A stretch of DNA of 64,000 nt from Promethearchaeota archaeon (GTDB lineage Archaea > Asgardarchaeota > Lokiarchaeia > Sigyniarchaeales > SOKP01), in the NCBI GenBank assembly GCA_019057795.1, contig JAHLWS010000038.1, positions 40,734 to 104,733 of the forward strand. Direction: 5' to 3'. The translations under genes were made by a program, and so were the position numbers. A model generated the notes under the pieces. It was given only the letters and a program-made list of their open reading frames with translations. It was not told the DNA's origin and made no database searches. The first letter of the stretch is position 1. The number at the start of each line of letters is the position of its first letter. This document shows, piece by piece, positions 7,101 to 22,155 of the stretch.

Positions 7101-10067
7101 ATGAATGAATTAGAAATTGATAAAGAGATTGAAAATTTTAAAGAGCAATTAAATTTACTAGCGATGATATTCGATACTCGTAGAAAAATGCGTAGAGAGA
7201 TATCTAACGAAAAAACAGGATTTGTCTTTAATGCTAGATATCAGTTTACTACAAAAGATGATGAAGTTAATGTAAACGTAATATTTAAAGATGGAAAAAT
7301 GACAGTCGGCGAGGGAAAAATTGACGATCCAAACATAACAATTTATTATAAAGATAAAGAGACTTTGGCTAATCTCTATAATAAAAGTGCTGAAGAATCT
7401 CTTGATTATCTTTTGACAAATGAAATGGGGTATATAGGAAACATGTCTTACCTTACTAAATTCTCTTATCTTACTTCACTTGTTACGGCTCCTAAAAAAA
7501 GGGCTTATAAAGGTCCAGAAAATCAATTAATATATCCTATCGAAGATATTGATAAGGGAAAAAAGAGCAGAAAACTAAGGAACGAGAGCTTAAATCGTAA
7601 GATCGATAATGTTCAAGTTTTAGAAGATCCATATCTGTCAAAATATACTTTAGATGATTTTCCACGCTTAAAATATTTGAAAAATAGAAGATTTGCCTTA
7701 AAACCAGTGATATGTGTTGAAAGAGCAAAACATTTGACAGAATATCATAGAGAGAATGGATTTGAAGTAGACAATTCAGGAAATCCGATTGATCCCGAAT
7801 TGCGCCAGGCAAGAGCAGTAAATCATATAATGTCAAATAAAAAACCAATAATTCATGATAAACATCTTATAGCAGGTTCAACTACTTCAAAAGAAGTAGG
7901 TATCCCCTTGTATCCGGAACTTATCGCGACGGGTATATGGCCTGAACTAAAAACTATTGGTGAACGTGAGCTTAATCCTAACGATATCTCAGATAAAGAT
8001 GCGGATATCTTAAGTTTGGAAGTATTTCCCTATTGGATGGAGCGGAATGTAAGAGAATATTGTAGAACAAAAAACAACGATCCATTCTCGCAGCATTTAG
8101 AAGAAGGGTGGGTTTTTTATTTCATGATGAAAAATAACGCGATTAGTCATACTGTTCCTGGTTTTCCAATGGTGCTTAATGAAGGGTTAGAAAGCGTGAA
8201 GAATAAAGCTAATAAAATGGAAATAAAAGCGGATACAACTGAAAAGCAAAATTTTTATAAGGCTATTCAAATTGCAATCGATGGGGTTCTAGCGTATTCT
8301 CAACATTTAAGTGAAGAAGCCCTTAGATCTGCTAATAATTTAGATCAAAATGATCCGGAACAAGCTACTCGCATTGAAGAATTGAAGGAACTCTCTAGAA
8401 TATGTGCCAAAGTCCCTGCTAAACCAGCAGAAACAATGTATGAAGCAGTTCAATCAATTTGGACTAGTTTTGTTTGTCTTCACTGTGAAAATGCAAATTC
8501 GGCTTTATCAATTGGTCGGCTTGATCAAATGTTACAACCTTTCTTTTTAAAAGAAATTGAAAAAGCTGCAAATGATGAAGAAAGAAATCAAATTGTAAAA
8601 AAAGCTATAGAATTTGTAGGATCGTTATTTTTGAGGATAAATGACCACGATCCGGTAATGCCGAATGTAGGGTGGAAATTATTCGGGGGGAGCTCTTCTG
8701 ACGACACAGTAACTATTGGAGGTGTAGATAGAGATGGTAAAAATGCCGTAAACGATATGAGTTTTATTATATTAAAAACAAATGAAATGCTGGGTTTTCA
8801 GGATCCTAATATGAATGCCAGATATTATTCTGGTATTAATTCAAAGGAGTATCTAAGACGATTGTGTGAAGTAAATATCAATATGGGCGCTTCGCCTAGT
8901 ATTCATAACGATAGAACTATGATTGAAGCGTTGGTCCATGAAGAATTCTCAATTGAAGACGCAAGAGATTGGGCGGCTACAGGTTGTGTAGAGCCCACAA
9001 TTGTAGGTAAACATTATGGTCATACGAATTGTATGCTTTTAAACTTAGTCGCACCATTAGAAATTACTTTAAATAATGGTTTCATACCTTTAACTGGAGA
9101 AAAAGTGGGTCCTGAAACGGGTGATGTTCGAACATCTTTCCCGACATTCGAAGACTTTCTTAATGCATATAAAACTCAACTCAAATATTTAGCAGAAAAA
9201 TCAATTGAAATAAATAATTATTTAGGAGAAGCCCATCGGTATATACATCCTACACCATTATTATCTGGATTCTTTGAGGGTCCTTTAGAACAAGGCAAAG
9301 ATCTTATTCAAGGAGGAGCTATTTATAATACATCAGGAGTTGCCTTAGTGGCATTGACAGATGTGGTTGATAGCTTATTAGTTGTAAGAGATCTCATCTA
9401 CAAGAAAAAAGAATTGAACTTTGCTACATTGATGGATGCCATTGAAAATAACTTTGAGAATGGTTTTGAATCAGTTCTACACAATATAGAACAAGTTCCA
9501 AAATTTGGGTCTGGCGAAAATGGTACTTTCGAACTTGCTCAAGATTTAATTGACTTTTGCTACGATGTTTATCATTCTATTGATAATTATAGAGGAGGTA
9601 AATACTTAGTGGGATATTGGTCTATTAGTTACCACGCAGGGTTTGGAATGCTTACTGGCGCCTTGCCCTCAGGTAGAAAGAAAGGTAAAGCATTAACACC
9701 TGGACTAACTCCCGCCCCGGGTACAACGGATATCCTATTACCAAGTATTCAAAGTGTTGCGAGCTTAGATTACTTGAAAATGCCAAATAATGCATCTTAT
9801 AATGTAAAATTAATACCTCATTCTGGAGATTCACATAAAGAAACATTAGATCTCTTTACAAGTTATGTGCAAAGCTTTTTTGATTTGAATGGGATGCAGT
9901 GGCAATTTAATGTCGTGTCCACTGATACATTAAGAGATGCGATGGCAAATCCAATTGATTACCGCTGGCTTTTAGTTAGAGTTTCAGGATATAACGCATA
10001 TTTCACGAAATTAAATAAGAATATGCAATTAGAATTTATTGAGCGGCATGAATATAAATCAAGATAA
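7101..10067 (+). CDS. Glycyl radical enzyme (eliminase/PFL2-like class) with N-terminal SCP2-like lipid-binding domain
   Basis: Cys loop ATGCVEP, Gly loop RVSGY, SIGRLDQ; N-terminal ~130 aa (YQFTT..VIFKDGKMTVGEGKIDDPNITI..YIGN) match the SCP2 pattern. Confidence 0.88.
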   Translation: MNELEIDKEIENFKEQLNLLAMIFDTRRKMRREISNEKTGFVFNARYQFTTKDDEVNVNVIFKDGKMTVGEGKIDDPNITIYYKDKETLANLYNKSAEESLDYLLTNEMGYIGNMSYLTKFSYLTSLVTAPKKRAYKGPENQLIYPIEDIDKGKKSRKLRNESLNRKIDNVQVLEDPYLSKYTLDDFPRLKYLKNRRFALKPVICVERAKHLTEYHRENGFEVDNSGNPIDPELRQARAVNHIMSNKKPIIHDKHLIAGSTTSKEVGIPLYPELIATGIWPELKTIGERELNPNDISDKDADILSLEVFPYWMERNVREYCRTKNNDPFSQHLEEGWVFYFMMKNNAISHTVPGFPMVLNEGLESVKNKANKMEIKADTTEKQNFYKAIQIAIDGVLAYSQHLSEEALRSANNLDQNDPEQATRIEELKELSRICAKVPAKPAETMYEAVQSIWTSFVCLHCENANSALSIGRLDQMLQPFFLKEIEKAANDEERNQIVKKAIEFVGSLFLRINDHDPVMPNVGWKLFGGSSSDDTVTIGGVDRDGKNAVNDMSFIILKTNEMLGFQDPNMNARYYSGINSKEYLRRLCEVNINMGASPSIHNDRTMIEALVHEEFSIEDARDWAATGCVEPTIVGKHYGHTNCMLLNLVAPLEITLNNGFIPLTGEKVGPETGDVRTSFPTFEDFLNAYKTQLKYLAEKSIEINNYLGEAHRYIHPTPLLSGFFEGPLEQGKDLIQGGAIYNTSGVALVALTDVVDSLLVVRDLIYKKKELNFATLMDAIENNFENGFESVLHNIEQVPKFGSGENGTFELAQDLIDFCYDVYHSIDNYRGGKYLVGYWSISYHAGFGMLTGALPSGRKKGKALTPGLTPAPGTTDILLPSIQSVASLDYLKMPNNASYNVKLIPHSGDSHKETLDLFTSYVQSFFDLNGMQWQFNVVSTDTLRDAMANPIDYRWLLVRVSGYNAYFTKLNKNMQLEFIERHEYKSR

Positions 10068-10156: not shown

Positions 10157-11056
10157 ATGACAGATAAAACTCTATTAGTAGATATTAAAAGGAACGCTTT
10201 AGATGACGGTCCAGGAATAAGAACATTACTATTTTTTAAAGGTTGCCCACTTTCTTGTGTATGGTGCCAAAATCCTGAAGCCAAATCGCCATTTAAAGAA
10301 ATTTCTTTTAATAAAGATAGTTGTAGTGAATGTGGAACATGTTTAAAAGTTTGTAATCAAGAAGCTATAGATTTTTCATATAAATATCGAATAGATCGCT
10401 CTTTATGTAATCTCTGTGGTAAATGCATTGAAGTATGCCCAAATTATGCCTTAGAATTTGTAGGACAAGAATATAGCATAAAAGACTTACTTGAAATTAT
10501 ATTAAAAGATAAAATTTTTTATAAAAATTCAGGTGGAGGGGTTACCTTTTCTGGCGGAGAACCACTTTTTCATATAGATTACATAAAGGAATTAGTAAAA
10601 GAACTCAAAAAAGAAGATATTCATTTATGCATTGAAACCTGTGGATATTATAATCGAGACAAATTTTATGAATTTATTTTACCATATATCGACCTTATTT
10701 ATTTTGATTTGAAAATTTACAATCCACAATTACATGCTAGATATTGTAAAGTTTCAAACGAGAGGATATTAAAAAATTTTGAAGATATCATTGAAAACAA
10801 ATCAATAGAAATATTACCAAGGATTCCTCTTGTTCCTAATATAACTGATACTGACGATAATTTGAGTAACTTAGCTAATTATTTGAAAACCTTAAATATA
10901 AAAAAAATAGGATTATTACCTTATAATCCACTCTGGCTCTCTAAACCAGAAAAGATAGGAATTAAACCATCCTATGACTATTCTGAATGGTTAGATAATA
11001 AAGATAAAGAGAGAATTAAATCAATTTTTTCTGATTTTGAATTTAAAGATTTTTAG
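10157..11056 (+). CDS. Glycyl-radical enzyme activating protein (radical SAM, with 2x[4Fe-4S] insert)
   Basis: DGPGIRT, GCPLSCVWCQNPE, two CxxCxxCxxxC motifs, GVTFSGGEP. Confidence 0.95.
   Translation: MTDKTLLVDIKRNALDDGPGIRTLLFFKGCPLSCVWCQNPEAKSPFKEISFNKDSCSECGTCLKVCNQEAIDFSYKYRIDRSLCNLCGKCIEVCPNYALEFVGQEYSIKDLLEIILKDKIFYKNSGGGVTFSGGEPLFHIDYIKELVKELKKEDIHLCIETCGYYNRDKFYEFILPYIDLIYFDLKIYNPQLHARYCKVSNERILKNFEDIIENKSIEILPRIPLVPNITDTDDNLSNLANYLKTLNIKKIGLLPYNPLWLSKPEKIGIKPSYDYSEWLDNKDKERIKSIFSDFEFKDF
10981..11056 (+). repeat. Activase 3' end (copy A'), duplicated in degenerate form at 15241..15316
   Basis: Ungapped 58/76 nt identity by manual alignment; first 13 nt and 23 of the last 24 nt identical. 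Confidence 0.85.
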
Positions 11057-11087
11057 CTAAGCAATTTATTTTAATATCTCTAATTTT
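11037..11087 (+). repeat. 51-bp direct repeat, left copy (last activase codons plus downstream flank)
   Basis: 48/51 nt identical to 14466..14516. Confidence 0.9.
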
Positions 11088-11269
11088 TATTTTCTAAAAA
11101 TTTCTGCGACATCTTGTCCCTTTTTTGGACATATACATTAGACTGTATACTCTACAAATTCTATGAACAACAACCTTTCTCTGCTTATCATGATAATCGC
11201 TTCTTTTAATTAATATCTAAAAAAATATTTATTGTTTTTATACTAAATTGTTAATTCCTAAATAATTAG

Positions 11270-11395
11270 AGCCCAAATCAAATACCAGACATTCAAACCT
11301 GTTATTTTGGTACAAGATTCACAGAAAAAGAAATATTATATATCAAAAAAAATGCAAAAAAAAGAAGCCAGACAATTGGTGAATTAAATAATTAA
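11270..11395 (+). pseudogene. Ribbon-helix-helix (CopG/MobC-like) DNA-binding fragment
   Basis: Manual translation ...CYFGTRFTEKEILYIKKNAKKRSQTIGEL; no start codon. Confidence 0.4.
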
Positions 11396-11400
11396 TATAT

Positions 11401-12543
11401 CTAGAAAATGTTAAATAATTCAGAATATCTTCTAAGGTAATCAGGAAATTTATCGATTAAATCTTTCGTTTTGAATGCATTATTAGCACAATTTACAAAA
11501 TCTTGTTGCGATTCTAATAAATCATCTGGAAAAATACCTGAAATTTTAACTTTATTCAATCTAATTTCTCTTATTTGAGAGTAGTTGGTATTTAAAAATT
11601 CTTTCCATTTATCCAGAAAAGAATCCTCTTTAATAATAAATAGATTGATAATATCTTTAAACATGGAGTTTGCGACATCTGGTCTTTCTTTTATATTTAA
11701 TTCAGCATTTTTACATTTTGTTTTTAATTCTTCAGCATTTTTGAACCAGAGGATATATTCAAGAAATTTTTTTATATTAGTTAGTAAGTCAAGATCGTAA
11801 TAAAAGATATTTTGCAAATCTTGTTCTCTTTTGACAAGTCTCAGAATATCTCTAACTTGTTTTATTCTAGTGATTCTTTCTTGAAATCCCTCTACTGAAT
11901 CCTTTTTATGCTTCCAAAAATTCGTCCAACCCTTAATAAAATACTCTGTTATCTCTTTATTTTCAAGAAAAATAATTTCCTCTATTGGGATTCTTGAATA
12001 GAAATGAGATAATTTTCCAATAAATATTTTACGAGCTTGTTCTATGATCCTTGCCTTCCAACAATATTTCAAATTTTCAATTATTATATTATAAGGGACA
12101 TTAAATGGATTATGAAAAATAATTTCAAATGGACCATATGATCTACTAGCATCTGGAGGAGAAATTCTTGGTATATACAATCTTCTCGTTGTGTCCTTTA
12201 TTTTTGTATTAATATCTTCAATAATATTATGCGAAGGAAGGAGTATTTCTGTAGATTCAAGTGGAAAAAATATCAAGTCTTTATTAGGAAGGATATCACA
12301 ATCTTGACTAGCTAAAATGCCCCAGTGAGCATCTATGAACCCTTCCACTTGCATTTGACCTCCATTTTTTAATATTTTTGTTAAAATCTCGTCTTTTTCA
12401 TTTTGAAACTTATCTAGAATGTCTGGACTCGATCGAATTAAGGAGTCATACGTTAAATAAGGTAAATTGCAAAAAATATCTCCTTGCGAGATTAAAACTT
12501 CATTCTTAATCATATCCTTGTATTTATAAATTGTTTTTTCCAT
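11401..12543 (-). CDS. Hypothetical protein with N-terminal 'QGDI...SQDCD' domain (PemK/MazF-like fold suspected) and helical C-terminus
   Basis: SQGDIF and ILASQDCDI motifs; third gene of the operon. Confidence 0.5.
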   Translation of the reverse strand: MEKTIYKYKDMIKNEVLISQGDIFCNLPYLTYDSLIRSSPDILDKFQNEKDEILTKILKNGGQMQVEGFIDAHWGILASQDCDILPNKDLIFFPLESTEILLPSHNIIEDINTKIKDTTRRLYIPRISPPDASRSYGPFEIIFHNPFNVPYNIIIENLKYCWKARIIEQARKIFIGKLSHFYSRIPIEEIIFLENKEITEYFIKGWTNFWKHKKDSVEGFQERITRIKQVRDILRLVKREQDLQNIFYYDLDLLTNIKKFLEYILWFKNAEELKTKCKNAELNIKERPDVANSMFKDIINLFIIKEDSFLDKWKEFLNTNYSQIREIRLNKVKISGIFPDDLLESQQDFVNCANNAFKTKDLIDKFPDYLRRYSELFNIF

Positions 12544-12561
12544 GATTAAGATCCAATTATT

Positions 12562-13191
12562 TTATTTTAAATTCCTCAATCTTTCCTTTCTATTCTGAAT
12601 ACAATTAGAATACACTATTAAAGATCTTACGGAATGTTTCAATAATTTATTTTCTTTCTTGTTTGTAATCTTCTTAAAAATTTCATCCTTCCAAAATTCT
12701 TCATCAATGATTTCAACTAGATCATTATCTTTTGATAATTCATTACAAATGTAATAGAAGGTATCTGGAGAAAATTGATCTTCAGGTTCTAAACGTGAAT
12801 AGGCATCCGGATCATTCTTTTTTAATTCATATATAATAGAAAGGTAAAATAGCGTTATAGAATTTAAGAATTTCGAATTCTTAATCTTAGGATCCCCTAA
12901 GAGTCGAAGGTATGTGATGATTAATCGGTGAAAAATGAGTGGAATTATTTCAGAACTCTCTTTGCTAACTAGATTTTTAATTTTCATTTTAATTTCCTTT
13001 GTTTTATCTATAAATTCTATTAGTGGATCTTCTTCCGATTCTTCGGATTCTTCCTCACTTTCAGTAGATGTTGCATCATCGTAAAACCATTTTATAATAA
13101 TAGACGCATTATCGATAATCCAATCTTGAATTTCAAGTTCAAGCTTTTTTAAATCAGGTGATTGGAAACTTTCCTCAATCTTATAACTCAT
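12562..13191 (-). CDS. Hypothetical protein with acidic tract
   Basis: 209-aa ORF, DDATSTESEEESEESEED; 12-18 nt spacing from neighbours. Confidence 0.65.
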   Translation of the reverse strand: MSYKIEESFQSPDLKKLELEIQDWIIDNASIIIKWFYDDATSTESEEESEESEEDPLIEFIDKTKEIKMKIKNLVSKESSEIIPLIFHRLIITYLRLLGDPKIKNSKFLNSITLFYLSIIYELKKNDPDAYSRLEPEDQFSPDTFYYICNELSKDNDLVEIIDEEFWKDEIFKKITNKKENKLLKHSVRSLIVYSNCIQNRKERLRNLK

Positions 13192-13203
13192 TTCAAGCCC
13201 TTT

Positions 13204-13950
13204 TTAATAATCTTTTACTTCAAGTTCGAGAGCATCTCTATATTCATCTGTCAAAAAATTTATGAAGTAATCTTCAATTCTATCATGGCATTCATTTAAA
13301 TGACTTTCAAGAATTTCAGTATCGGGGCCTATACTAGTATTAGCTACACTTCCTACGGTCTCTAATCTAAAATTGTAGTTTACCTCATCGTGATTTTTGG
13401 GGATAGATTTGAATCTTATGACAATCTTTCTCTTTCCCGAGATAGGGTCATCTTCAAAAGGTACAAATCCTAAGATTGTGTCATAGAATTTTATTTCCCA
13501 CTCGTGTTTAAAGTTAAAATTCGGCATAGTAAAAAACTTATTATACAAAAACGCCTCCTTTGGAATAGTAAAAATATCTATATATGTTAATACTATTTTA
13601 CTAATCTTAGGAAGGTCTAAAATTTTACCTAGAGCATTTAGTACAGTCAATATTTTAGGCAATTCTCTAACCCATTCTTGATAGTCAGAAAAAGTAAATA
13701 AAAGATAGTCTTGCCCAAGTTCTACACGATTTCTTTTGTTTGTATCCCAGAAAGTAAGAGGAGCTATATTAATTTCTGTAAAGCGCTTTTTGAGTAATCC
13801 TAAGAGTGGTTTTGTAGGGTAATATGCTTGAATGGCTTCTGCAAAAGGATTTATTTTTTCAAGTTTTATTCCCGGAAGCAATCTTTCATAGGTTAAATTA
13901 ATTATGAAATTATCTAATGTTCTCTTTCCAAAATATACTATTCTCTTCAT
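13204..13950 (-). CDS. TIGR04255-family protein
   Basis: ~250 aa; F..YQEW, KIVLTYIDIF, LNECHDRIEDYFINFLTDE pattern typical of the family. Confidence 0.65.
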   Translation of the reverse strand: MKRIVYFGKRTLDNFIINLTYERLLPGIKLEKINPFAEAIQAYYPTKPLLGLLKKRFTEINIAPLTFWDTNKRNRVELGQDYLLFTFSDYQEWVRELPKILTVLNALGKILDLPKISKIVLTYIDIFTIPKEAFLYNKFFTMPNFNFKHEWEIKFYDTILGFVPFEDDPISGKRKIVIRFKSIPKNHDEVNYNFRLETVGSVANTSIGPDTEILESHLNECHDRIEDYFINFLTDEYRDALELEVKDY

Positions 13951-14085
13951 AATAAAAACTTAAAATTATTATTTTACTTTAATAGATCTTTATACTTTTT
14001 ATCAATAAATTTTTTATCATTAAAAATTTATACTTTTTTGAATATTCAATTATTCCTTTAGTAAGAAATTAACTTTGAAAATTAA

Positions 14086-14469
14086 AAATCAACTACTAAT
14101 AAACATCATCATTATTTCTATAAATTTTATTTCAGGGATAATAGACTCCCTCAACCAATTGAGAGTTATTTATCGTTTACAGAAAAAAATTTATCCAGAA
14201 CTTACCATAAAATTATGGAAGAAAAATCTATAAATAACCTAAATGAGAAGGAAATAAAATATCTAGTTAACCTTACTTATTACTAATAAGTCCGAATAGA
14301 ATATATGAGAACTAAAGCAATACAGATATTAAAGGATGCTACAGAAAAAGAGAAATCTAATTACTTGAAAGATCAAACAATTAAAGAATATAATGAATTT
14401 AAAGAGTTTGGCACGACTAAGCATCCAATCAGACTCCAAAAATTATTAATTGTTGTTGATGATGATTGA
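14086..14469 (+). pseudogene. DUF4238-like remnant
   Basis: Manual translation HYFYKF..QPIESYLSFTEKNLSRTYHKIMEEKSINNLNEKE..YY**VR; two in-frame TAA at 14284-14289; ends at the repeat. Confidence 0.5.
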
Positions 14470-14516
14470 ATTTAACGATTTTTAGCTAAGCAATTTTTTT
14501 TATTATCTCTAATTTT
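14466..14516 (+). repeat. 51-bp direct repeat, right copy (reads EFNDF*)
   Basis: 48/51 nt identical to 11037..11087. Confidence 0.9.
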
Positions 14517-14644
14517 AATATTATCAAAATAACTCTAGCATAACATTTAAATAGATAAATCCCTATATATATAACATAAGCATATCCTTTAAAATTAGAA
14601 AAGATGTTTGTATAACAATTACTTTTTGAAAAAGGTGGTATTGT

Positions 14645-15208
14645 ATGACAACTATTGCAGAAAAATTAATAAAAGAATTAAAAACAAAAGCTTTAACAAT
14701 TCTTCAATTAAGTGAAATAACAGGGATTGAAGAACCAAAAATAAGAACTACTATTAAAAGATTAAAAGATAGAGCCATAGTCCAAGAAACAGGTATGTTT
14801 TCAGAAAGATATAAAATATATAAACTTTCAGACAAATTGTTTAATGCATCTTTCATAATGAGAATTATAAAGAAGCTTGATGGTGTAAAAGCTGTCATTC
14901 TTATAAGTATTATTGATGGCGCACCAATAAGCAGTATACTTCCGGAAGGAGCTAATGAATCTCGTTATGCAGCAATGACTACTGCTCTATTTAGTCTAGC
15001 GCAAAGAGCATGCGTCGCAACTAATAAAGGAAAATTCAAATTTTCTTATATCGAAGGAGAAGATGGAAAACTTCTAATAATATATTACCATAAAGCGTTA
15101 GTTTTATCGATTTCATTCGATTCAACAATTAGCAATGAAATGATTTTTACATCCTATATTAGAATTATAGAATTAATCGGTAATCCTTTATCTGATTTAA
15201 TTCAATAG
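14645..15208 (+). CDS. Winged-HTH fused to roadblock/LC7 domain
   Basis: N-terminal LTILQLSEITGIEEPKIRTTIKRL; C-terminal GVKAVILISIIDGAPISS..YAAMTTALFSLA..IEGEDG. Confidence 0.8.
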   Translation: MTTIAEKLIKELKTKALTILQLSEITGIEEPKIRTTIKRLKDRAIVQETGMFSERYKIYKLSDKLFNASFIMRIIKKLDGVKAVILISIIDGAPISSILPEGANESRYAAMTTALFSLAQRACVATNKGKFKFSYIEGEDGKLLIIYYHKALVLSISFDSTISNEMIFTSYIRIIELIGNPLSDLIQ

Positions 15209-15240
15209 AGCTTTATTTAATAATTAAGCTGGTTCTCAAG

Positions 15241-15316
15241 TTCTGAATGGTTAACTAAATAGAAAAAAAAAGAGATTAAAGAGATATTTTCAGATTTTGA
15301 ATTTAAAGATTTTTAA
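15241..15316 (+). pseudogene. Displaced original 3' end of the activase gene
   Basis: From 15242 reads SEWLTK*KKKEIKEIFSDFEFKDF* versus intact SEWLDNKDKERIKSIFSDFEFKDF*; its stop overlaps the AOR stop. Confidence 0.85.
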
Positions 15317-17109
15317 ATTGGTTTACCTTGTGCATCCCACTTTCTAATTTGGTAATACTTTTCTAATAATCCTTCTAATGGAGGAATATTATGTTTAGTT
15401 CCACCTTTTTCAAGGGGTGAATAAAATCTCTTCCCAAAATTATCGTCTGCTTTAGTGATCCCACAATTTACATTAAAAATTCTTTTCATTCTAATGATCT
15501 TTTGTCCTACTTTCATGAAATCATCAACTGTATATGCTCTTCCAGTAATTCCATTAAGACCATTTATCCAAGGTGTGAGTTTGTGGATGAACCAGAATCC
15601 AAATATACATCCACCACAGGCAGAATACGCCTCACTGGCATCTTGAATCTTTATTACAGCTTTGGCAACATCATCCCCCGTTCCAAAACGATCTACTTGT
15701 TCGGTTAAACCGATTTCTTCTTTTTGATTCATATAGGAAGATAAATGCATTGGTTCATAACAATGATATGCACCTCGAGGTGTTGTTGCATAATCTAATG
15801 CCGTTAGATTATTTGCTCGTGGTTCATGAGCAGGAACCTCGAGTCCTTTTCCATGCATGGAGAGTTCTTCTGGTAATCCCTTTACTTCACAAAAAGATCT
15901 CACTCCTTCAGCTAAATCATTACCAATTCCTTCTCGATAAGCAATTTTAGTGAAAAGTTTTTCTATCGGTCCAATAGCACCCCAAATATTTTCCTCAGTA
16001 AATCCAAATTCATCTAAATTAACATCAATTAGCTTTCTTTCAATAGATTCAAGAAAACATCCTATCATTGCCCCAAGACTAATTGAGTCCAGACCAAGAT
16101 CGTTGACTATTAAATTCCATTTGATTAACGCTTCTAAGTCGTTAACTAATAAATTAGAACCTAGCATTCCTAGTGTTTCATATTCAGGGCGAGTTACCCA
16201 TTCTCCCTCATATTCCACGAACCCTCTGCAAGCCGTTGGACAATTAAAACAACCATGCATTTTAACTTCTCCTCTTGCATTTAATGCTTTTGCTCCAATT
16301 TTTTTAATCCCAGTCCATCTTCCTTGAGTATAGTTCTTAATAATAATATCTCCTACACTAGCCATGGAGTCTATGTGGACTGGTGTACCTGAATCTGCTA
16401 TTACCATTCCTAATCCGGATTTCTTTAATAATTCTCTAAGTTCTTTAGCTGCATCATTCACTTTATCTTTATCTTGAACGGGAACTTTCCCCGTACCAAG
16501 GACTGCAATAGCTTTTAAGTTCTTGCTACCCATTACAGCTCCCATACCGCAACGTCCAGCTGCGTGATGTTTATCATTGATTATACACGCATATTTGACT
16601 AAATTTTCTCCAGCAGGGCCAATAGTAGCTACTTTTATTTTATCGTTTCCAAGCAGATCTTTTATTTTTTCATCAGTTTCTTGAGTTCCTTTTCCCCACA
16701 ATTCAGAAGCGTCCTTTATTTCTACTACCCCGTCATTTATCCATAGATAAACCGGGCTTTGACTTTTACCCTTAATGATTACTAGATCAAAACCTGCAGA
16801 TTTAAGCTCCTTACCAAAAAAACCTCCTGAAGATGCTTCCCCGAGAATTTTAGTTAGCGGTGATTTTGCTGTAATAAAGTATCTACCACAGAAAGGAATA
16901 GCTGTGCCGCAAAATGGACCAACTGAGAAGATCAAAAGATTATTTCCATCAAACGGATCAATTTCGGGTTCTACTTCTCGTGTGAAGATCGCAGTTGCTA
17001 AACCCATTCCTCCGATTAATGACACTTCATCTTCATCACTGTAATCTTCATAGTCAATGTTTTTCGTTTCTAAATCTATTCTTAAAATTTTTGCGATTTT
17101 TATCACCAA
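15313..17109 (-). CDS. aor: Aldehyde:ferredoxin oxidoreductase (W/Mo-pterin)
   Basis: KSPLT, AGRCGMGAVMGSKNLKAI, CxxCxxxC, PEYET, LGLDSIS, GKGLE. Confidence 0.92.
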   Translation of the reverse strand: MVIKIAKILRIDLETKNIDYEDYSDEDEVSLIGGMGLATAIFTREVEPEIDPFDGNNLLIFSVGPFCGTAIPFCGRYFITAKSPLTKILGEASSGGFFGKELKSAGFDLVIIKGKSQSPVYLWINDGVVEIKDASELWGKGTQETDEKIKDLLGNDKIKVATIGPAGENLVKYACIINDKHHAAGRCGMGAVMGSKNLKAIAVLGTGKVPVQDKDKVNDAAKELRELLKKSGLGMVIADSGTPVHIDSMASVGDIIIKNYTQGRWTGIKKIGAKALNARGEVKMHGCFNCPTACRGFVEYEGEWVTRPEYETLGMLGSNLLVNDLEALIKWNLIVNDLGLDSISLGAMIGCFLESIERKLIDVNLDEFGFTEENIWGAIGPIEKLFTKIAYREGIGNDLAEGVRSFCEVKGLPEELSMHGKGLEVPAHEPRANNLTALDYATTPRGAYHCYEPMHLSSYMNQKEEIGLTEQVDRFGTGDDVAKAVIKIQDASEAYSACGGCIFGFWFIHKLTPWINGLNGITGRAYTVDDFMKVGQKIIRMKRIFNVNCGITKADDNFGKRFYSPLEKGGTKHNIPPLEGLLEKYYQIRKWDAQGKPI

Positions 17110-17258
17110 TTTTTACTTTAATTGTAATTAAATCTGTTTACATGTTATTTATAGGTTTTCTTCGTGATTATAATAAGTTCATAAATATTGGTCTACTGCA
17201 ATTTAAAGTTATGTAAATTATTACACTATATTAGAAAACTAATATTAAATCATGAAAA

Positions 17259-18362
17259 ATGAGTATAAGAAAAAATATTAAGTTAGTAGACCCAAATATG
17301 GCAAAAGTCTTCATTCCATGGGTATTAAGACATCCTTCTTATTTAATTACAACAAGAAAATTAATTAAATCCTTCAAAAATACAGTTGAATTATGTAAAA
17401 AAGCTAAAGAAGAAGGTTTAAAAGTTCCACCCTTTCTAATTCTGAGTATTACGAAACAATGTAATTTACATTGTGCAGGATGTTATGCTGCTACCGCTGG
17501 AACCTTGAGCATCAAAACTGAAAAGCAATTAAATACCGATGCTTGGAGAAAGATTATAAAGGAAGGAAATGAATTAGGAGTATTTTGCTATGTAATTGCT
17601 GGTGGAGAACCATTCATGTTTCCAAACCTACTCGATTTATGTAGCGAGTTCAAGGATAGAGGTTTTATAATTTTTACAAATGGAACGGCAATCAAAGAAA
17701 CTGATTATGAGAAATTGAAAAAATTAAAAAACATCGCGATCATCGTTAGCATTGAAGGAGGTAAAGAGGAGACTGATAGTAGAAGAGGAGCGGGGGTTTA
17801 TGAAAAGGTATTAAAAACTATTCATAGACTTAACAAAATTGGCACAATAAATGGTATATCAGTGACAATCAATGGAATGAATTATAAACAATGGATGGAA
17901 CCTTCTATGATTGACTTTCTTATTAAAAAAGGTGTAAGAATAGGATTCTTCTTAGAGTATATTCCCACCAAGCATGATATTACAGAATCTTTAATGTTGA
18001 CAGAAGAAGAAAGAACAGCATTCCGAAACCAAATATTAAATTATAGAGCGAATAAAAAAATTTATTTAATTCATTCACCCGGAGATGAAGAATATATGGG
18101 CGGATGTGTTTCAGCGGGAAGAGGTTTCGCCCATGTTACTCCATCTGGAGCTTTAACACCTTGCCCAGTTTCTAGTATGACTACGCATAATTTAACTAAA
18201 TCATCATTACGTGAAGGATTAGCTAGTGATTTTTTTAAATATATAAGGGAAAATGAACATTTATTGGAAACTGAAGGCTCTCCTTGTGCACTTTTTAGCC
18301 ATCAGGAAGAATTGGCCTTAATTGCTTCTAAATTTAAAGTAAGTAAGGTAAGTACATTATAG
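17259..18362 (+). CDS. Radical SAM protein (SPASM/twitch-type)
   Basis: CNLHCAGC, GGEP, GCVSAGRG..PC. Confidence 0.9.
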   Translation: MSIRKNIKLVDPNMAKVFIPWVLRHPSYLITTRKLIKSFKNTVELCKKAKEEGLKVPPFLILSITKQCNLHCAGCYAATAGTLSIKTEKQLNTDAWRKIIKEGNELGVFCYVIAGGEPFMFPNLLDLCSEFKDRGFIIFTNGTAIKETDYEKLKKLKNIAIIVSIEGGKEETDSRRGAGVYEKVLKTIHRLNKIGTINGISVTINGMNYKQWMEPSMIDFLIKKGVRIGFFLEYIPTKHDITESLMLTEEERTAFRNQILNYRANKKIYLIHSPGDEEYMGGCVSAGRGFAHVTPSGALTPCPVSSMTTHNLTKSSLREGLASDFFKYIRENEHLLETEGSPCALFSHQEELALIASKFKVSKVSTL

Positions 18363-18408
18363 TTTTTTATATAATACTACTTTTTTTAAATAAAATGGTT
18401 TTGTAATC

Positions 18409-19374
18409 ATGGTTAATAATTTTAATTTTTCTGTACTTGATGGCCATATCGATACAATTAAAAAAAGCTCAAGAGACAAACTTGACTTTTCAATCCGTTC
18501 TGAAATTGGTCATTATGATTTACCTCGTATGGAAGAAGGAAATGTACAAGCTGCAATTTTTGCAATCTATCCCGCTTCGTCGATAAACCGCATTCTTAAA
18601 GGTCTTGACTTATGGTTTAAATTTGTCTTTAATCCAATTAATAAATTAATGCAAATAAAAAGAATAGATGATTTCACAAAAATGCAAACATTGGGTAAAA
18701 GGGGAGCGATCCTACACTTTGAGGGTGCTGGAGGGATTGATAAAACTTTTCGCCTTTTAAGGATTGCATATCGTCTTGGGTTGCGAACAATGGGTTTAAG
18801 CTGGTCAAATTTTAATAAATTTGCTACGGGAGTGATGTTTAACGACCCTCAAAAAGAATCTGGTCTAACTAAAGAAGGAATAAAATTAGTTGCTGAAGCA
18901 CAGGCTCTTGGTATCGCCATAGATGTTTCTCATTTAAACGAACCTTCTTTTTGGGATGTTTATGAAATCACTGAAAAACCGATTTTTGCCTCACATTCAA
19001 ATGCTCGTGCTATTGTTAATCATCCAAGGAATTTAACTGATGAGCAAATAAAAGCAATTCATGAAAAGCATGGAACCATAGGGATTAATTTTGCAATGGG
19101 TTTTCTAAATGCTAAAGAACCAGGTATGTATAATTATAACCTAAATTTTGATTCAATTAAAAAACATATTGACCATCTCGTTGAAATTGCTAGTATCGAT
19201 ATAGTAGCTATAGGTTCAGATTTTGATGGTGCAGCTACACCAACTTGTGTTAAAGATTGCTCTAGGTTTCCCAGATTATGGGATTATCTTCTTGAAAATG
19301 GGTATAGTGAACATGATATTGAAAAGATCTCACATACAAATTTATTACAAGTTTTTAAAAAAACATGGAAATAG
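18409..19374 (+). CDS. Membrane dipeptidase (peptidase M19)
   Basis: DGHID, DVSH, ASHSNA, HPRNL, GSDFDG. Confidence 0.92.
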   Translation: MVNNFNFSVLDGHIDTIKKSSRDKLDFSIRSEIGHYDLPRMEEGNVQAAIFAIYPASSINRILKGLDLWFKFVFNPINKLMQIKRIDDFTKMQTLGKRGAILHFEGAGGIDKTFRLLRIAYRLGLRTMGLSWSNFNKFATGVMFNDPQKESGLTKEGIKLVAEAQALGIAIDVSHLNEPSFWDVYEITEKPIFASHSNARAIVNHPRNLTDEQIKAIHEKHGTIGINFAMGFLNAKEPGMYNYNLNFDSIKKHIDHLVEIASIDIVAIGSDFDGAATPTCVKDCSRFPRLWDYLLENGYSEHDIEKISHTNLLQVFKKTWK

Positions 19375-19420
19375 GTTTTTTTTTATTAAAGAAAAAAAAA
19401 AGATTTGTTTATTTTTGAAT

Positions 19421-19747
19421 TTATTCTGGTGGCTTGAGCCCTAGAATATCCATTGCTTCGACAATTGAAGACATAACTTCGACCTGATATTTATAGCCCT
19501 CAATACCATTTGCGATAAAAAGTAGGGTTTTATTTAGTTGGGCAATAAATGCATTAAGTTTCCCTTCTTTAATTTCAGACGCGCTTACTACTTTGTATCC
19601 TTCTTTGGTTGCAGCGACAGCATTATTTAGGAGGTCTTTAGAAAGAGACCTATCTCCTGGAAATTTTTTCGAAGCTTCAATGAACAGTTTCCCTGCCTCA
19701 GAGGCTTTAGCATGGGGGATCCATACTGTAGTCATAACTATTACCAT
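19421..19747 (-). CDS. Small conserved-looking hypothetical protein
   Basis: 108-aa ORF with upstream AGGTGA SD-like site. Confidence 0.7.
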   Translation of the reverse strand: MVIVMTTVWIPHAKASEAGKLFIEASKKFPGDRSLSKDLLNNAVAATKEGYKVVSASEIKEGKLNAFIAQLNKTLLFIANGIEGYKYQVEVMSSIVEAMDILGLKPPE

Positions 19748-20077
19748 CTATATCACCTTAAATAAATAATATTTTATTAAATTCGCATCATTTTTTGACA
19801 AAAACGACAATTTTATTATATTAATCATATATATAAAAATATTACTGAGATTTCAGTAAAATTTTAGAAAAAATGATGAAACATTGTTAGTCTCTGTATC
19901 TCAATACAAAGTCGCTCCATATTTTTTAAGAGTTTAGAGCAAAGGGTGGCATTTTTGATACAGAAATATAAAAACAAACCAGAATTCGAATAGTTATTTT
20001 TAATTAATCTCAAATGGGACCTTTGCTGGTGATGCATCTAAATTTAAAGTCCGAAAATTGAATTCAATTTAGTCTTT

Positions 20078-21175
20078 TTATTGAATTTTATAGCTTGATT
20101 TTTTCATTTTACTCTTATAATCTTTATGATATAGACGTTGATGTTTGATAGGCATCTTCTCAAACTCTTCTGTTGCTTTATCTGGAGGAAACACTTCAAG
20201 ATTACCCTCTTCTCTTTGAATGACGCATCCAGAATTAACCAATATTTTGTATCGTTGAGCTGTTTCTTTTGGATTGCCGGCACAAACAAGTTGGCAATTT
20301 GCACAAGTGAGTTGAATATTACTCTTTCCACCATAAGATGCAGGTTGATATCCGCTTGAGCAATCTTTAATGGGAGGTCTTTTCCTTTGACTTGACATTG
20401 CGAGAGACATAAGGCGTGCTACTTCTTTATCGTTTTCGGGGTAATCATACCGTCCAGGAGACCACGTTGAAAACTTACCTGACGGATGTAATCCATTAGA
20501 TCCGCCACATGTAAGAAAACAGCGCATTTTATTCATCCTCTTGGAGTAACTAAATGTATTACCCCCTATTGTTACAGTAGTTTCTTCTGTAGGTGAGAAC
20601 ATTTGATAAGCACAGACTTTTGTGCAGATTTTACACTCATCACAAAATGATTCTGAATCAGGTAAAGGGTCTGTTGGTTCAAGTTTGGCATCAGTAATGA
20701 TTCCTCCTAGAATAATGGCAGTTCCATGCTCCTTTGTGCCAACATTCCCTGACCAACCAAACGATGCCACTCCAGTTCGAACGGCCAGATATCTTAACGA
20801 AAGCTCGGGGGGTAAGGTAACTTGCCATCCCGGGATATCCGTTCGATAGTGGTTATTCGGAATAACGGATATTGCTTTATAGCCCTGCTCAATCAACCAA
20901 TGTTTAACGCGTTGAGCCGCTCTCCAAATTATATAATGAATTTCTAAATTTTCTTCTTCGTGAATTCCACGTATGGACGGATCTTCTTTTCCTAAATATT
21001 TTAAAATCATCTCTTTATCAAAGGGCAAGTAAAAACTTATCGCTGACTGAGCTTCGGGAAGTAAATAAGTGATATCGGCCCCTGTTGGTCCACCTGTCAT
21101 TGTTTCTTTAGTAGCAAATCCGACTTTTTTTGCTCCACCCTCGAATAACATATCTTTAATATTTTGTTCTAACAT
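20078..21175 (-). CDS. Epoxyqueuosine reductase (QueG)/reductive dehalogenase-like Fe-S protein
   Basis: LAVRTGVASFGWSGN, CDECKICTKVC, later CxxxC and CANCQLVC. Confidence 0.75.
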   Translation of the reverse strand: MLEQNIKDMLFEGGAKKVGFATKETMTGGPTGADITYLLPEAQSAISFYLPFDKEMILKYLGKEDPSIRGIHEEENLEIHYIIWRAAQRVKHWLIEQGYKAISVIPNNHYRTDIPGWQVTLPPELSLRYLAVRTGVASFGWSGNVGTKEHGTAIILGGIITDAKLEPTDPLPDSESFCDECKICTKVCAYQMFSPTEETTVTIGGNTFSYSKRMNKMRCFLTCGGSNGLHPSGKFSTWSPGRYDYPENDKEVARLMSLAMSSQRKRPPIKDCSSGYQPASYGGKSNIQLTCANCQLVCAGNPKETAQRYKILVNSGCVIQREEGNLEVFPPDKATEEFEKMPIKHQRLYHKDYKSKMKKSSYKIQ

Positions 21176-21264
21176 AATAAATTACCACCTATATATGTTT
21201 CATCAATACTTAATTTAAAATTATTCAAGTTTAGTGATTAGAAATTTCAGAATAATCCAAGGTA

Positions 21265-22155
21265 TTATTTTTTTGCTGGTGATGCATAACAATAATCACA
21301 ATTATGTTTGCACCGAAAAATACCTGTATATCCACCGATATCTTTAGATTTAAAACACCCGCAACCTTTTCTTTGTCCTGTATCTTTTACTTTTGAAATT
21401 TTTTCCCCTATGATTTGTTCGATTTTATTAGCGTCAACGCAGTGAGCTTGTTCTATGCCATTAATTTCAAGTAACCCCGGTTGGCAACAAGCTCTCATCT
21501 GCATTTCATGTTTATTGCAAATTTTCAATAATTTATTGAGAATTTCTTTCTTTTTACTAAAAGGGGGATCAAGTGGGATAAATCCTCTTGCTTTCATTCG
21601 ATTGTTTACTTTTGTATAAATTGTAGCGAAGGAAAATATCATTTCTTTCAACCCAAGAGCAGAAACTTTTTCTATTATATATTCAAATTTGTCTAGGTTA
21701 CTTTTTATTCTATTTTCATCCTTCTTTTTGTAAATGATTATAGGATCAAATCTAAAACTTACAGAAGTCAAACCAAATTCATCGATTATCCATTTTAATT
21801 GGTCAAATCTCTCTTCTAAGGAGATACCCAGATTTTGCTCTAATTCAGAAGGTGAATTAATCGTAAACTGAAAGTAATGTCCCCTATAAGATTTAAAAAC
21901 TTGAGTGTTTCTTTCATAGTTTTTGATCCATCCTTCAAAATTTTTACTCCACCACACCCAACATCTTACATCCTTGGGTTTCAACGAAACTCGAGACATT
22001 TGTTTTCGATTAAATGGATTAACCACATCCACATAACCGATCTGGATTCTATCGATTACCCAATCCATTAAAAAAGCGGGAATATCTGTTCTACGAGAAC
22101 AAGAAATTATTGGAGATTTAACAATTTTCATTAAATCATTTGAATTTTTAACCAT
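21265..22155 (-). CDS. DUF1848 family protein (SPL-like)
   Basis: IISCSRRTDIPAF, RFDPI, QRxxCGC..SKDIG, CxHxCxYCYA. Confidence 0.9.
   Translation of the reverse strand: MVKNSNDLMKIVKSPIISCSRRTDIPAFLMDWVIDRIQIGYVDVVNPFNRKQMSRVSLKPKDVRCWVWWSKNFEGWIKNYERNTQVFKSYRGHYFQFTINSPSELEQNLGISLEERFDQLKWIIDEFGLTSVSFRFDPIIIYKKKDENRIKSNLDKFEYIIEKVSALGLKEMIFSFATIYTKVNNRMKARGFIPLDPPFSKKKEILNKLLKICNKHEMQMRACCQPGLLEINGIEQAHCVDANKIEQIIGEKISKVKDTGQRKGCGCFKSKDIGGYTGIFRCKHNCDYCYASPAKK

Follow-up and report, generated by a model that had tools for sequence, protein, structure and literature searches.

Stacked insertions lacking an integrase at the 3' end of a glycyl-radical activase gene in a Promethearchaeota genome

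Background

How can foreign DNA settle twice at the end of one protein-coding gene, leave the gene intact each time, and bring no visible recombinase with it? The question is raised by a 64,000-nt stretch of a Promethearchaeota genome (GenBank assembly GCA_019057795.1, contig JAHLWS010000038.1, positions 40,734 to 104,733), which we call the window and whose coordinates are used throughout. Here a gene for a glycyl radical enzyme (GRE) is followed by its glycyl-radical activase, a radical SAM protein recognised by Pfam (10157-11056, plus strand; intact, 299 aa), and the order then continues with three minus-strand genes, a plus-strand gene that joins a winged helix-turn-helix (wHTH) to a Roadblock/LC7 domain, and a minus-strand gene for aldehyde:ferredoxin oxidoreductase (AOR; 15313-17109, PF02730 and PF01314). 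A first-pass annotation, made from the sequence alone, had read the DNA between activase and AOR as two nested insertions, each rebuilding the activase 3' end. The matter is of wider interest in that gene acquisition and shuffling in Asgard archaea bear on the gene repertoire of the archaeal ancestor of eukaryotes. We label the present genome G000 (4.95 Mb in 87 contigs; the window is G000:C38:40734-104733) and compare it with 42 genomes of the same genus (G labels) and with metagenome contigs (L labels). The nearest named relatives of its proteins come from metagenome-assembled genomes of Promethearchaeota/Lokiarchaeia, such as 'Promethearchaeota archaeon Loki_b31', in keeping with an Asgard genome.

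Results and discussion

Three copies of the activase 3' end

The end of the activase gene is present three times, always on the plus strand. Copy A (10981-11056, in a region that overall spans 10981-11101) is the functional end and the partner of copy C in the older of two events. Copy C (15241-15316) is the original activase end, now pseudogenised by an in-frame stop; in the activase frame it reads SEWLTK, a stop, KKKEIKEIFSDFEFKDF and a final stop, and this final stop (15314-15316) overlaps the stop of the convergent AOR gene (15313-15315), an overlap noted before and borne out by the coordinates. Copy B (14466-14530) is a displaced activase end, EFNDF and stop, with its flank. Its counterpart at the gene is the left copy at 11037-11101, comprising the last 17 coding nucleotides, the stop codon and 45 nt of flank, and the two form the 65-nt direct repeat of the younger event.

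The matches are specific to these places. Without gaps, A and C agree at 58 of 76 positions, the best other 76-mer in the whole window on either strand reaching 43 of 76; A and B agree at 48 of 51 (11037-11087 versus 14466-14516; next best 33 of 51), and this match can be extended to 58 of 65 (11037-11101 versus 14466-14530). A search of all 4.95 Mb of the genome gives these three copies as the sole matches (E-values 7e-58, 4e-18 and 9e-14), with the next one at 2.7e-4. The threefold end and both counts, claimed in the first-pass annotation, are borne out and prove unique in the genome. That annotation had named an assembly artefact as one finding that would overturn it. Two independent Logan assemblies, built from separate sequencing runs (SRR14803104 and SRR30888638), match the window at 100% identity across 11.1 and 8.7 kb, stretches that take in all three copies, and the repeat structure is therefore not such an artefact.

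On comparison with the tails of orthologues, the last 21 codons of the functional gene belong to a 'new' tail type (LDNKDKERIKSIF...). Copy A agrees at 68-72 of 76 positions with the tails of alleles linked to the wHTH gene and at 56-58 of 76 with those of empty alleles, in which the activase faces AOR directly. Copy C agrees at 72 of 76 with the functional tail of the empty allele in G005, and the stretch made up of C and the AOR 3' end runs colinear with that genome over 174 nt at 92.5%. In the younger event A and B stand about equally far from single-copy relatives, with 55-57 and 56-59 of 65 positions in agreement.

These distances bear on one alternative, that the repeats are long target-site duplications made upon insertion, by fill-in of a staggered double-strand break or by template switching, and that the foreign tail A came later through allelic recombination. 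The equal distances of A and B, which have some variants in common, are what it expects of the younger event, yet A and C differ at 18 of 76 positions, each matching another natural allele class, and the older event would call for a further recombination step whose crossover fell within 13 nt. We know of no mechanism that regularly makes duplications of 50-150 nt in archaea, which also counts against it. We regard this alternative as rather improbable, and return to it with inserts elsewhere in the genome.

Alleles in related genomes and the order of events

A comparison of the activase-AOR junction across relatives, proposed beforehand as a check, finds empty, intermediate and differently filled alleles. 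The empty allele is present in G005, G006, G023 and G057, and its activase tail is of the type kept in copy C. In the intermediate allele, that of G042 and G050, the activase is followed by the wHTH-Roadblock gene, a decayed C remnant and AOR; the junction of CAAGT and TCTGAATGG, at 15240/15241 of the window, is common to both. The C remnants of G000, G042 and G050 have this one junction but differ in stops and indels, with independent decay in G042 and G050. The three-gene operon occupies the activase site in G000 alone, and the younger insert is absent from that site in G042, G050, G020 and all other relatives. Thus among the genomes whose GRE is 97% identical to that of G000, G005 is empty, G042 is single-filled, G020 is single-filled with another right side, and G000 is double-filled.

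Because empty and intermediate alleles exist while the three-gene operon is at the site only in G000, the age order holds, with the newest insert beside the gene, as first claimed. The order of events is confirmed: at first the activase faced AOR, the wHTH unit then came in with its new tail, and the three-gene chunk followed. That the older insertion brought both the wHTH-Roadblock gene and a new 3' end agrees with the intermediate state of G042 and G050 and with the match of C to empty-type tails. The supposed ancestral order of activase against AOR has to be narrowed: judged from the same comparison, it is ancestral only for this sub-lineage, the activase in deeper relatives facing a DUF1848 gene or being followed by an AOR paralogue.

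One may ask whether the direction should be reversed, the filled arrangement being ancestral and the shorter alleles of relatives arising by deletion between repeats. Recombination of A with C or with B would remove the cargo precisely and could restore the old tail, and by GRE identity the empty G005 stands among filled close relatives. Deletions do occur at the locus: the activase is lost in G001 (L052) and G022 (L053), where GRE, a tail remnant and AOR remain, and on metagenome contig L059 both GRE and activase are deleted, with 49 GRE codons fused to the activase tail. But C is a gene fragment with a stop, colinear with the tail and AOR of four empty genomes, some of them distant, with an activase only about 70% identical; since a gene end must be functional before its displacement, this disfavours deletion. 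So does the presence of the operon at the activase site only in G000, its other occurrences being elsewhere in G020, on a metagenome contig and as a homologue in G008, and so does a truncated foreign gene in the cargo. We find the deletion account hardly credible.

Further relatives fill the same interval in other ways. In L061, L065 and probably G016 only the final 15 nt of the old tail remain between the same wHTH gene and AOR. In G020, G007, L062 and L092 the wHTH gene is followed by a co-directional AOR paralogue, and in L060, L094 and L095 such a paralogue lies directly 3' of the activase, without the wHTH gene. G014 has a metabolic block of 6.4 kb (fucosidase, SnoaL, sulfatase, DUF169 and flavodoxin) between activase and wHTH gene, and L093 has a block of the G014 type without the wHTH gene. 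A 0.8-kb insert with an LRR gene and its own duplication of about 75 nt is found in G056 and L062. In G021 and G013 the activase faces DUF1848 with nothing between, the DUF1848 gene lying within about 25-30 nt of the activase stop.

On the whole, the interval between activase and DUF1848 (11057-21264 in the window) ranges from adjacency in G021 and G013 to 0.9-10.2 kb in the others, with at least eight distinct contents. It is a genus-wide variable island between two conserved convergent genes, growing at the activase end, and the earlier claim of a protein-coding hotspot in an Asgard genome is upheld by it. The conserved left flank is the GRE gene (PFL-like; 7101-10067, plus strand; PF02901 at 8e-153, PF01228), and the right flank is the DUF1848 gene (21265-22155, minus strand; Pfam, 1.7e-70). 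The rest of the island (17259-21175) holds a radical SAM/SPASM gene, an M19 dipeptidase gene, and genes of 108 and 365 aa of unknown function, whose combinations of presence and absence vary between relatives.

The older insert

The body of the older insert (14531-15240, plus strand) consists of a spacer that can be aligned between the wHTH-linked alleles, the wHTH-Roadblock/LC7 gene (14645-15208, plus strand; PF03259 at 3.6e-10, with an N-terminal wHTH and a weak TrmB-type HTH), and a 32-nt 3' flank ending in CAAGT. The gene is about 80% conserved across the genus. Its cassette ends at the same CAAGT despite remnants of 76 nt in G000, G042 and G050 and of 15 nt in L061 and L065; in the AOR-paralogue alleles this end is followed by a weaker match of about 38 nt to the old tail. 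Old-tail remnants after the wHTH gene in the AOR-paralogue alleles and in G014, G015 and G052 are weak or low-complexity alignments, and we treat them as leads only. A hairpin 3' of the gene, considered as an attC-like or terminator signal, was discarded, as it folds no better than shuffled sequences (z = -0.95).

In most alleles the wHTH-Roadblock gene adjoins a gene of the AOR family, be it convergent, co-directional or divergent (L029, L033, L049 and L092). This adjacency suggests that the gene product may regulate AOR. No AOR-family match was found beside the wHTH gene in G014, and G015 and G052, with the same downstream sequence, seem alike.

The younger insert

The younger insert (11102-14465, 3.36 kb) is made up of 194-282 nt with no homologue found, a three-gene module and a fragment of a DUF4238 gene. 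For its left inner flank (11102-11295) no homologue was found in the genome or in the compared loci. The module (11296-14137, minus strand) encodes proteins of 380 aa (11401-12543), 209 aa, acidic (12562-13191), and 248 aa (13204-13950), the last belonging to the TIGR04255 family at 1e-12; the operon genes have no significant Pfam match (one sub-threshold DUF4898) and no PADLOC match. The module recurs at 86% nucleotide identity on another contig of G020 (G020:C35; L042 7265-17802), beside a type IIG restriction-modification (R-M) gene, at 90% identity on metagenome contig L089, where an LRR gene is its neighbour, and in G008 as a homologue of the operon at 35% identity. The family of the 380-aa protein has 34 matches, with all named members from Asgard metagenome-assembled genomes (MAGs). 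A protein-atlas search with the same protein returned only low-recognition bacterial clusters and was not used.

As for the surroundings of the operon in G020, the R-M gene encodes 1306 aa of Eco57I/MmeI type, and nearby are genes for a GmrSD endonuclease, an Arf-like GTPase and a Roadblock protein, so that the neighbourhood looks like a defence island. A defence role for the three-gene operon is plausible, the link being one of association through the R-M and GmrSD neighbours in G020 and the TIGR04255 gene, with PADLOC blank.

The DUF4238 piece (14137-14467, plus strand) is an internal fragment, matching at 91% nucleotide identity an inner part of a 335-aa gene; G056:C54 has this gene intact, and it belongs to DUF4238 at 6e-37. 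A 54-aa open reading frame (ORF) at 14305-14469 is spurious as a gene, as it lies inside this 330-nt fragment. Because the right end cuts the DUF4238 gene, the younger insert is a mosaic chunk. The proposal of a younger insertion carrying the three-gene operon therefore stands as to the operon, found at the site only in G000, and fails as to a tidy element, the chunk being scrambled. Beyond it, repeat B runs on into the upstream region of the wHTH-Roadblock gene as in single-filled relatives (alignments of G020, G042, G007 and G016). On the A side, the repeat boundary at +45 and an 11-nt inner motif are common to the insert of G000 and the LRR insert of G056, and the younger slot may be an older slot whose cargo was turned over. 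A common origin of the G056 LRR cargo and the LRR gene on L089 was dropped, the two having generic LRR similarity only.

Searches for recombinases and attachment sites

Scans of the insert ORFs with Pfam, NCBIfam, PHROGs and PADLOC give no recombinase in the inserts of the window, in keeping with the earlier statement that no integrase or transposase is present. Neither was one found in the 6.4-kb cargo of G014 or in the allele gene tables examined, and no integrase, such as the IntI of an integron, was found near the activase locus. The recombinases of G000, four tyrosine (PF00589) and one serine (PF00239), are all on other contigs. No transposase domain was found in the inserts and no inverted repeats at their ends; the repeats, 65-76 nt long and 89% and 76% identical, are unlike the short identical duplications of insertion sequences and transposons.

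The inserts might then be decayed or non-autonomous integrative elements, similar to cis-mobilisable elements (CIMEs), with an attP that mimics the activase end and a tyrosine or serine recombinase acting in trans or lost. Much of the anatomy speaks for it: target-derived direct repeats flank each unit (58 of 65 for A/B, 58 of 76 for A/C), as attL and attR would, the functional end is of foreign type, a host-type remnant is displaced, and the newest unit is beside the gene. The constant CAAGT at the right end of the wHTH cassette in several contexts and the +45 boundary shared by G000 and G056 also fit, as do the four tyrosine recombinases of the genome and an integrase element with repeats of about 85 nt. 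This element, a candidate classical integrative element at G000:C22:49056-58500 (L086), spans 9.4 kb, is bounded by imperfect direct repeats of about 85 nt (83% identical), and has a 306-aa tyrosine recombinase and a 977-aa ORF.

Several results oppose the integrative-element account, besides the lack of a recombinase in the inserts and alleles. The first-pass annotation had advised searching for the repeat core beside recombinases, but no second, attP-like activase tail was found in G000, the 42 genus genomes or IMG/VR. Additional hits to the tail pattern (26 nt with 3 mismatches, 42 genomes) were set aside, those checked being an unrelated conserved gene (HHDSAFEFN motif) or AT-rich intergenic DNA. 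The three repeat-forming events have different joints, the remnants starting at -76 (C), -31 (G056) and -20 (B) relative to the stop, so successive units do not use one crossover core. No convincing common junction motif was seen, a TGAAT near the starts of B and C being a post hoc 5-mer. The younger insert stops within a truncated gene, and the cassettes are very small (0.8 kb). We consider an integrative origin unlikely, though still a rival to be reckoned with.

Proposed recombination anchored by homology

The best explanation overall, which we hold with middling confidence, combines the insertion history given above with host recombination of DNA from relatives, and no element-encoded integrase. 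The evidence leans in this direction and away from the earlier proposal that the elements were mobilised in trans or have since been trimmed. Incoming DNA would derive from related archaea and carry its own activase 3' region. One crossover would be homologous, in or upstream of the activase tail, and the other end would be joined illegitimately within the resident tail, the whole amounting to homology-facilitated illegitimate recombination or to one-ended repair copied from a diverged allele. As to the history itself, a first event set an activase tail of another type, with a spacer and the wHTH-Roadblock gene, before the old tail, now pseudogene C; a later one placed the 3.4-kb chunk straight after the activase, bounded by the 65-nt duplication A/B. 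Selection would retain the products in which activase and neighbour are both intact, and the alleles so formed would then spread across species through ordinary homologous recombination.

Such selection is easily seen from the geometry of the locus. In the empty allele the stops of activase and AOR are adjacent or overlapping (within 8 nt), and therefore an insertion that spares both genes must duplicate a gene end. Because the activase directly adjoins the following gene or that gene's promoter, both stay whole only when an event supplies a replacement tail; since only such events survive, each rebuilds the activase and leaves a displaced remnant.

Traces of homologous exchange are found in the activase gene itself. 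By sliding-window identity, mL064, mL062 and G014 are about 78% identical to G000 in GRE and at least 90% from the activase start onward, while mL065, G016 and G007 rise to about 90% only within the last 450 nt or so of the activase. The left crossovers are variable, because the jumps in identity fall at either of these places, and the activase gene is, on these patterns, a recombination mosaic across species. Old-type tails occur on activase bodies 92, 89, 79 and 71% identical to that of G000, so tail type is uncoupled from body similarity. G014 has its insert at the same place without a duplication.

Several points weigh against homology-anchored recombination. A donor allele, in which the operon of three genes would natively adjoin an activase, did not turn up, and comparison of G000 with G042 or G005 shows no clear donor conversion tract just upstream of the repeats. 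The constant CAAGT end in alleles with differing remnant lengths suggests a discrete unit rather than random fragment ends, and the +45 boundary and 11-nt inner motif occur in both the G000 and the G056 insert. The equal distance of A and B from single-copy relatives makes target duplication at insertion possible for the younger event, and the 9.4-kb integrase element shows that integrase-made long repeats are possible in this genome.

Similar inserts elsewhere in the genome

Self-comparison of the G000 genome yields about 25 direct-repeat pairs of 42-154 nt, which bound segments of 0.9-10 kb and fall at gene starts about as often as at gene ends. Four pairs were compared with relatives, and each is shown to be an insertion with empty sites in sister genomes. 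The first, C79:87565-88982 (L067), has a 53-nt repeat (87565-87617/88930-88982, 52/53) from the 3' end of a GNAT acetyltransferase gene around a 1.3-kb insert with two PEMT-like methyltransferase genes; the site is empty in G042, G020, G005 and G050, and the insert has no recombinase. The second, C52:62408-67456 (L068), has a 66-nt repeat (62408-62473/67391-67456, 97%) at a tRNA-like end, which ARAGORN does not call, around a 4.9-kb insert whose genes encode a 1167-aa exonuclease-reverse transcriptase fusion and a further protein, of 259 aa and unknown function; its site is empty in G042, G009 and G050. The third, C60:6599-8452 (L097), with a 124-nt repeat of a gene 3' end (6599-6722/8332-8452, 93%), is a two-layer stack with the younger cargo next to the gene and the older beyond a remnant, and is empty in G050, G009 and G005. 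The fourth, C78:154118-157518 (L096), has a repeat of 59-67 nt at a gene 3' end around a 3.3-kb insert with a 204-aa gene and an 805-aa HNH_3 protein, and its site is empty in G020 and many other genomes. The first 1.5 kb or so of this insert is multi-copy in the genus (at least three copies in G000, several in G004 and G042), and the insert looks like an uncharacterised selfish element.

In the cargo genes scanned at C79, C52 and C78 (that of C60 was unscanned) no integrase was found, another point against integrative elements. The same inserts cut both ways for target-site duplication. The repeats of C79 (53 nt, 98%) and C52 (66 nt, 97%) are nearly identical and single-copy in relatives, cargo ends are arbitrary, and repeat lengths range from 42 to 154 nt over the genome, all of which would suit it; but at C79 and C52 it is the functional copy that has the few differences and the remnant that agrees with the relatives, whereas decay would predict the reverse. 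We do not rely on a general rule that the functional copy carries the differences: it holds strongly in the older event alone, is weak at C79, at C52 and in the younger event, and is reversed in G056.

At C80:25325-27845 (L069), the 3' region of an M14 peptidase gene recurs 2.4 kb downstream as two of its pieces fused together, and two PIN-domain genes stand between; the repeat looks like another displaced gene-end remnant.

A general reading, which we put forward as tentative, is that Promethearchaeota (Lokiarchaeia) may gain genes independently of recombinases, foreign or allelic DNA with a 40-150-nt copy of a resident gene end or intergenic boundary being spliced in by host recombination, so that the gene is restored and a remnant stays behind from which the event can be dated; the activase hotspot would then be one of about 25 repeat-bounded inserts in a 5-Mb genome. 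In a stronger version, the wHTH-Roadblock unit may be a discrete new cassette, with the defined end CAAGT, that entered the activase tail several times independently.

Significance and comparison with known systems

The record at this locus is unusually clean: sister species have alleles that are empty, half filled, doubly filled or filled with something else, and fossil gene ends put the events in order. The signature recurs elsewhere in the genome with cargo that looks like defence (the exonuclease-reverse transcriptase fusion, PIN toxins) or is metabolic. If host recombination alone is responsible, it would be a simple and general route of island growth in these archaea, and displaced gene ends would be a practical marker to find and date recent acquisitions in MAGs.

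Among published Asgard elements, aloposons and tRNA-integrated elements are described from Heimdallarchaeum (PMC8813620) and integrated elements from Atabeyarchaeia (PMC11529989); the targets are tRNA genes or an 11-bp motif, and the elements have tyrosine integrases or giant proteins. The activase locus resembles them in its Asgard host and in integrated DNA with cargo, while a search of PMC8813620 and PMC11529989 by terms gave no integrase-less stacks that duplicate a protein-coding 3' end. The Asgard mobile elements so far described bear integrases or are giant, and the activase locus shows gain without a visible recombinase. Compared with bacterial systems, its anatomy is that of tandem accretion at a gene 3' end, by analogy, yet neither the defining recombinase nor a common att core was found.

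A close anatomical parallel is at the fda 3' end of Streptococcus thermophilus, where integrative and conjugative elements (ICEs; ICESt1/ICESt3) and CIMEs accrete in tandem. Both loci have a protein-coding 3' end as target, direct repeats for each unit, an integrase-less tandem stack, and a gene end that stays intact. The fda system has an autonomous integrase element and the same att core throughout, whereas here no such element is seen in the 42 genus genomes and the joints differ. Phage 21 and e14, at the icd gene of E. coli, are prophages that encode their own integrase and cross over at a fixed site; there too incoming DNA supplies an alternative 3' end while the original end persists downstream as a displaced pseudo-copy, but the cargo here is of 0.8-3.4 kb and encodes no recombination gene. 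In the tRNA-linked island arrays of Prochlorococcus, the tycheposons, which have tRNA targets and a defined tyrosine-recombinase family, successive cargo units are likewise split by partial target 3' ends and many units have no recombinase; the activase locus differs in that its target is not a tRNA and no association with a tyrosine recombinase is seen.

The pangenomes of E. coli and Pseudomonas have integrase-free defence or variable hotspots between core genes, at which exchange through flanking homology is assumed. The activase island shares with these its conserved flanks, widely varying content and want of a recombinase, and differs in lying in an Asgard archaeon, in holding mostly non-defence genes, and in its fossil gene ends; to our knowledge the bacterial hotspots are not usually described with displaced ends of a flanking gene that record the order of events. 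Finally, homology-facilitated illegitimate recombination was established experimentally in naturally transformable bacteria, Acinetobacter and Streptococcus pneumoniae. Unlike the bacterial cases, the process would here be read from sequence, and we know of no demonstration of it in any Asgard archaeon; like them, the activase locus would combine one homologous anchor with one illegitimate joint, variable joints, and no dedicated recombinase.

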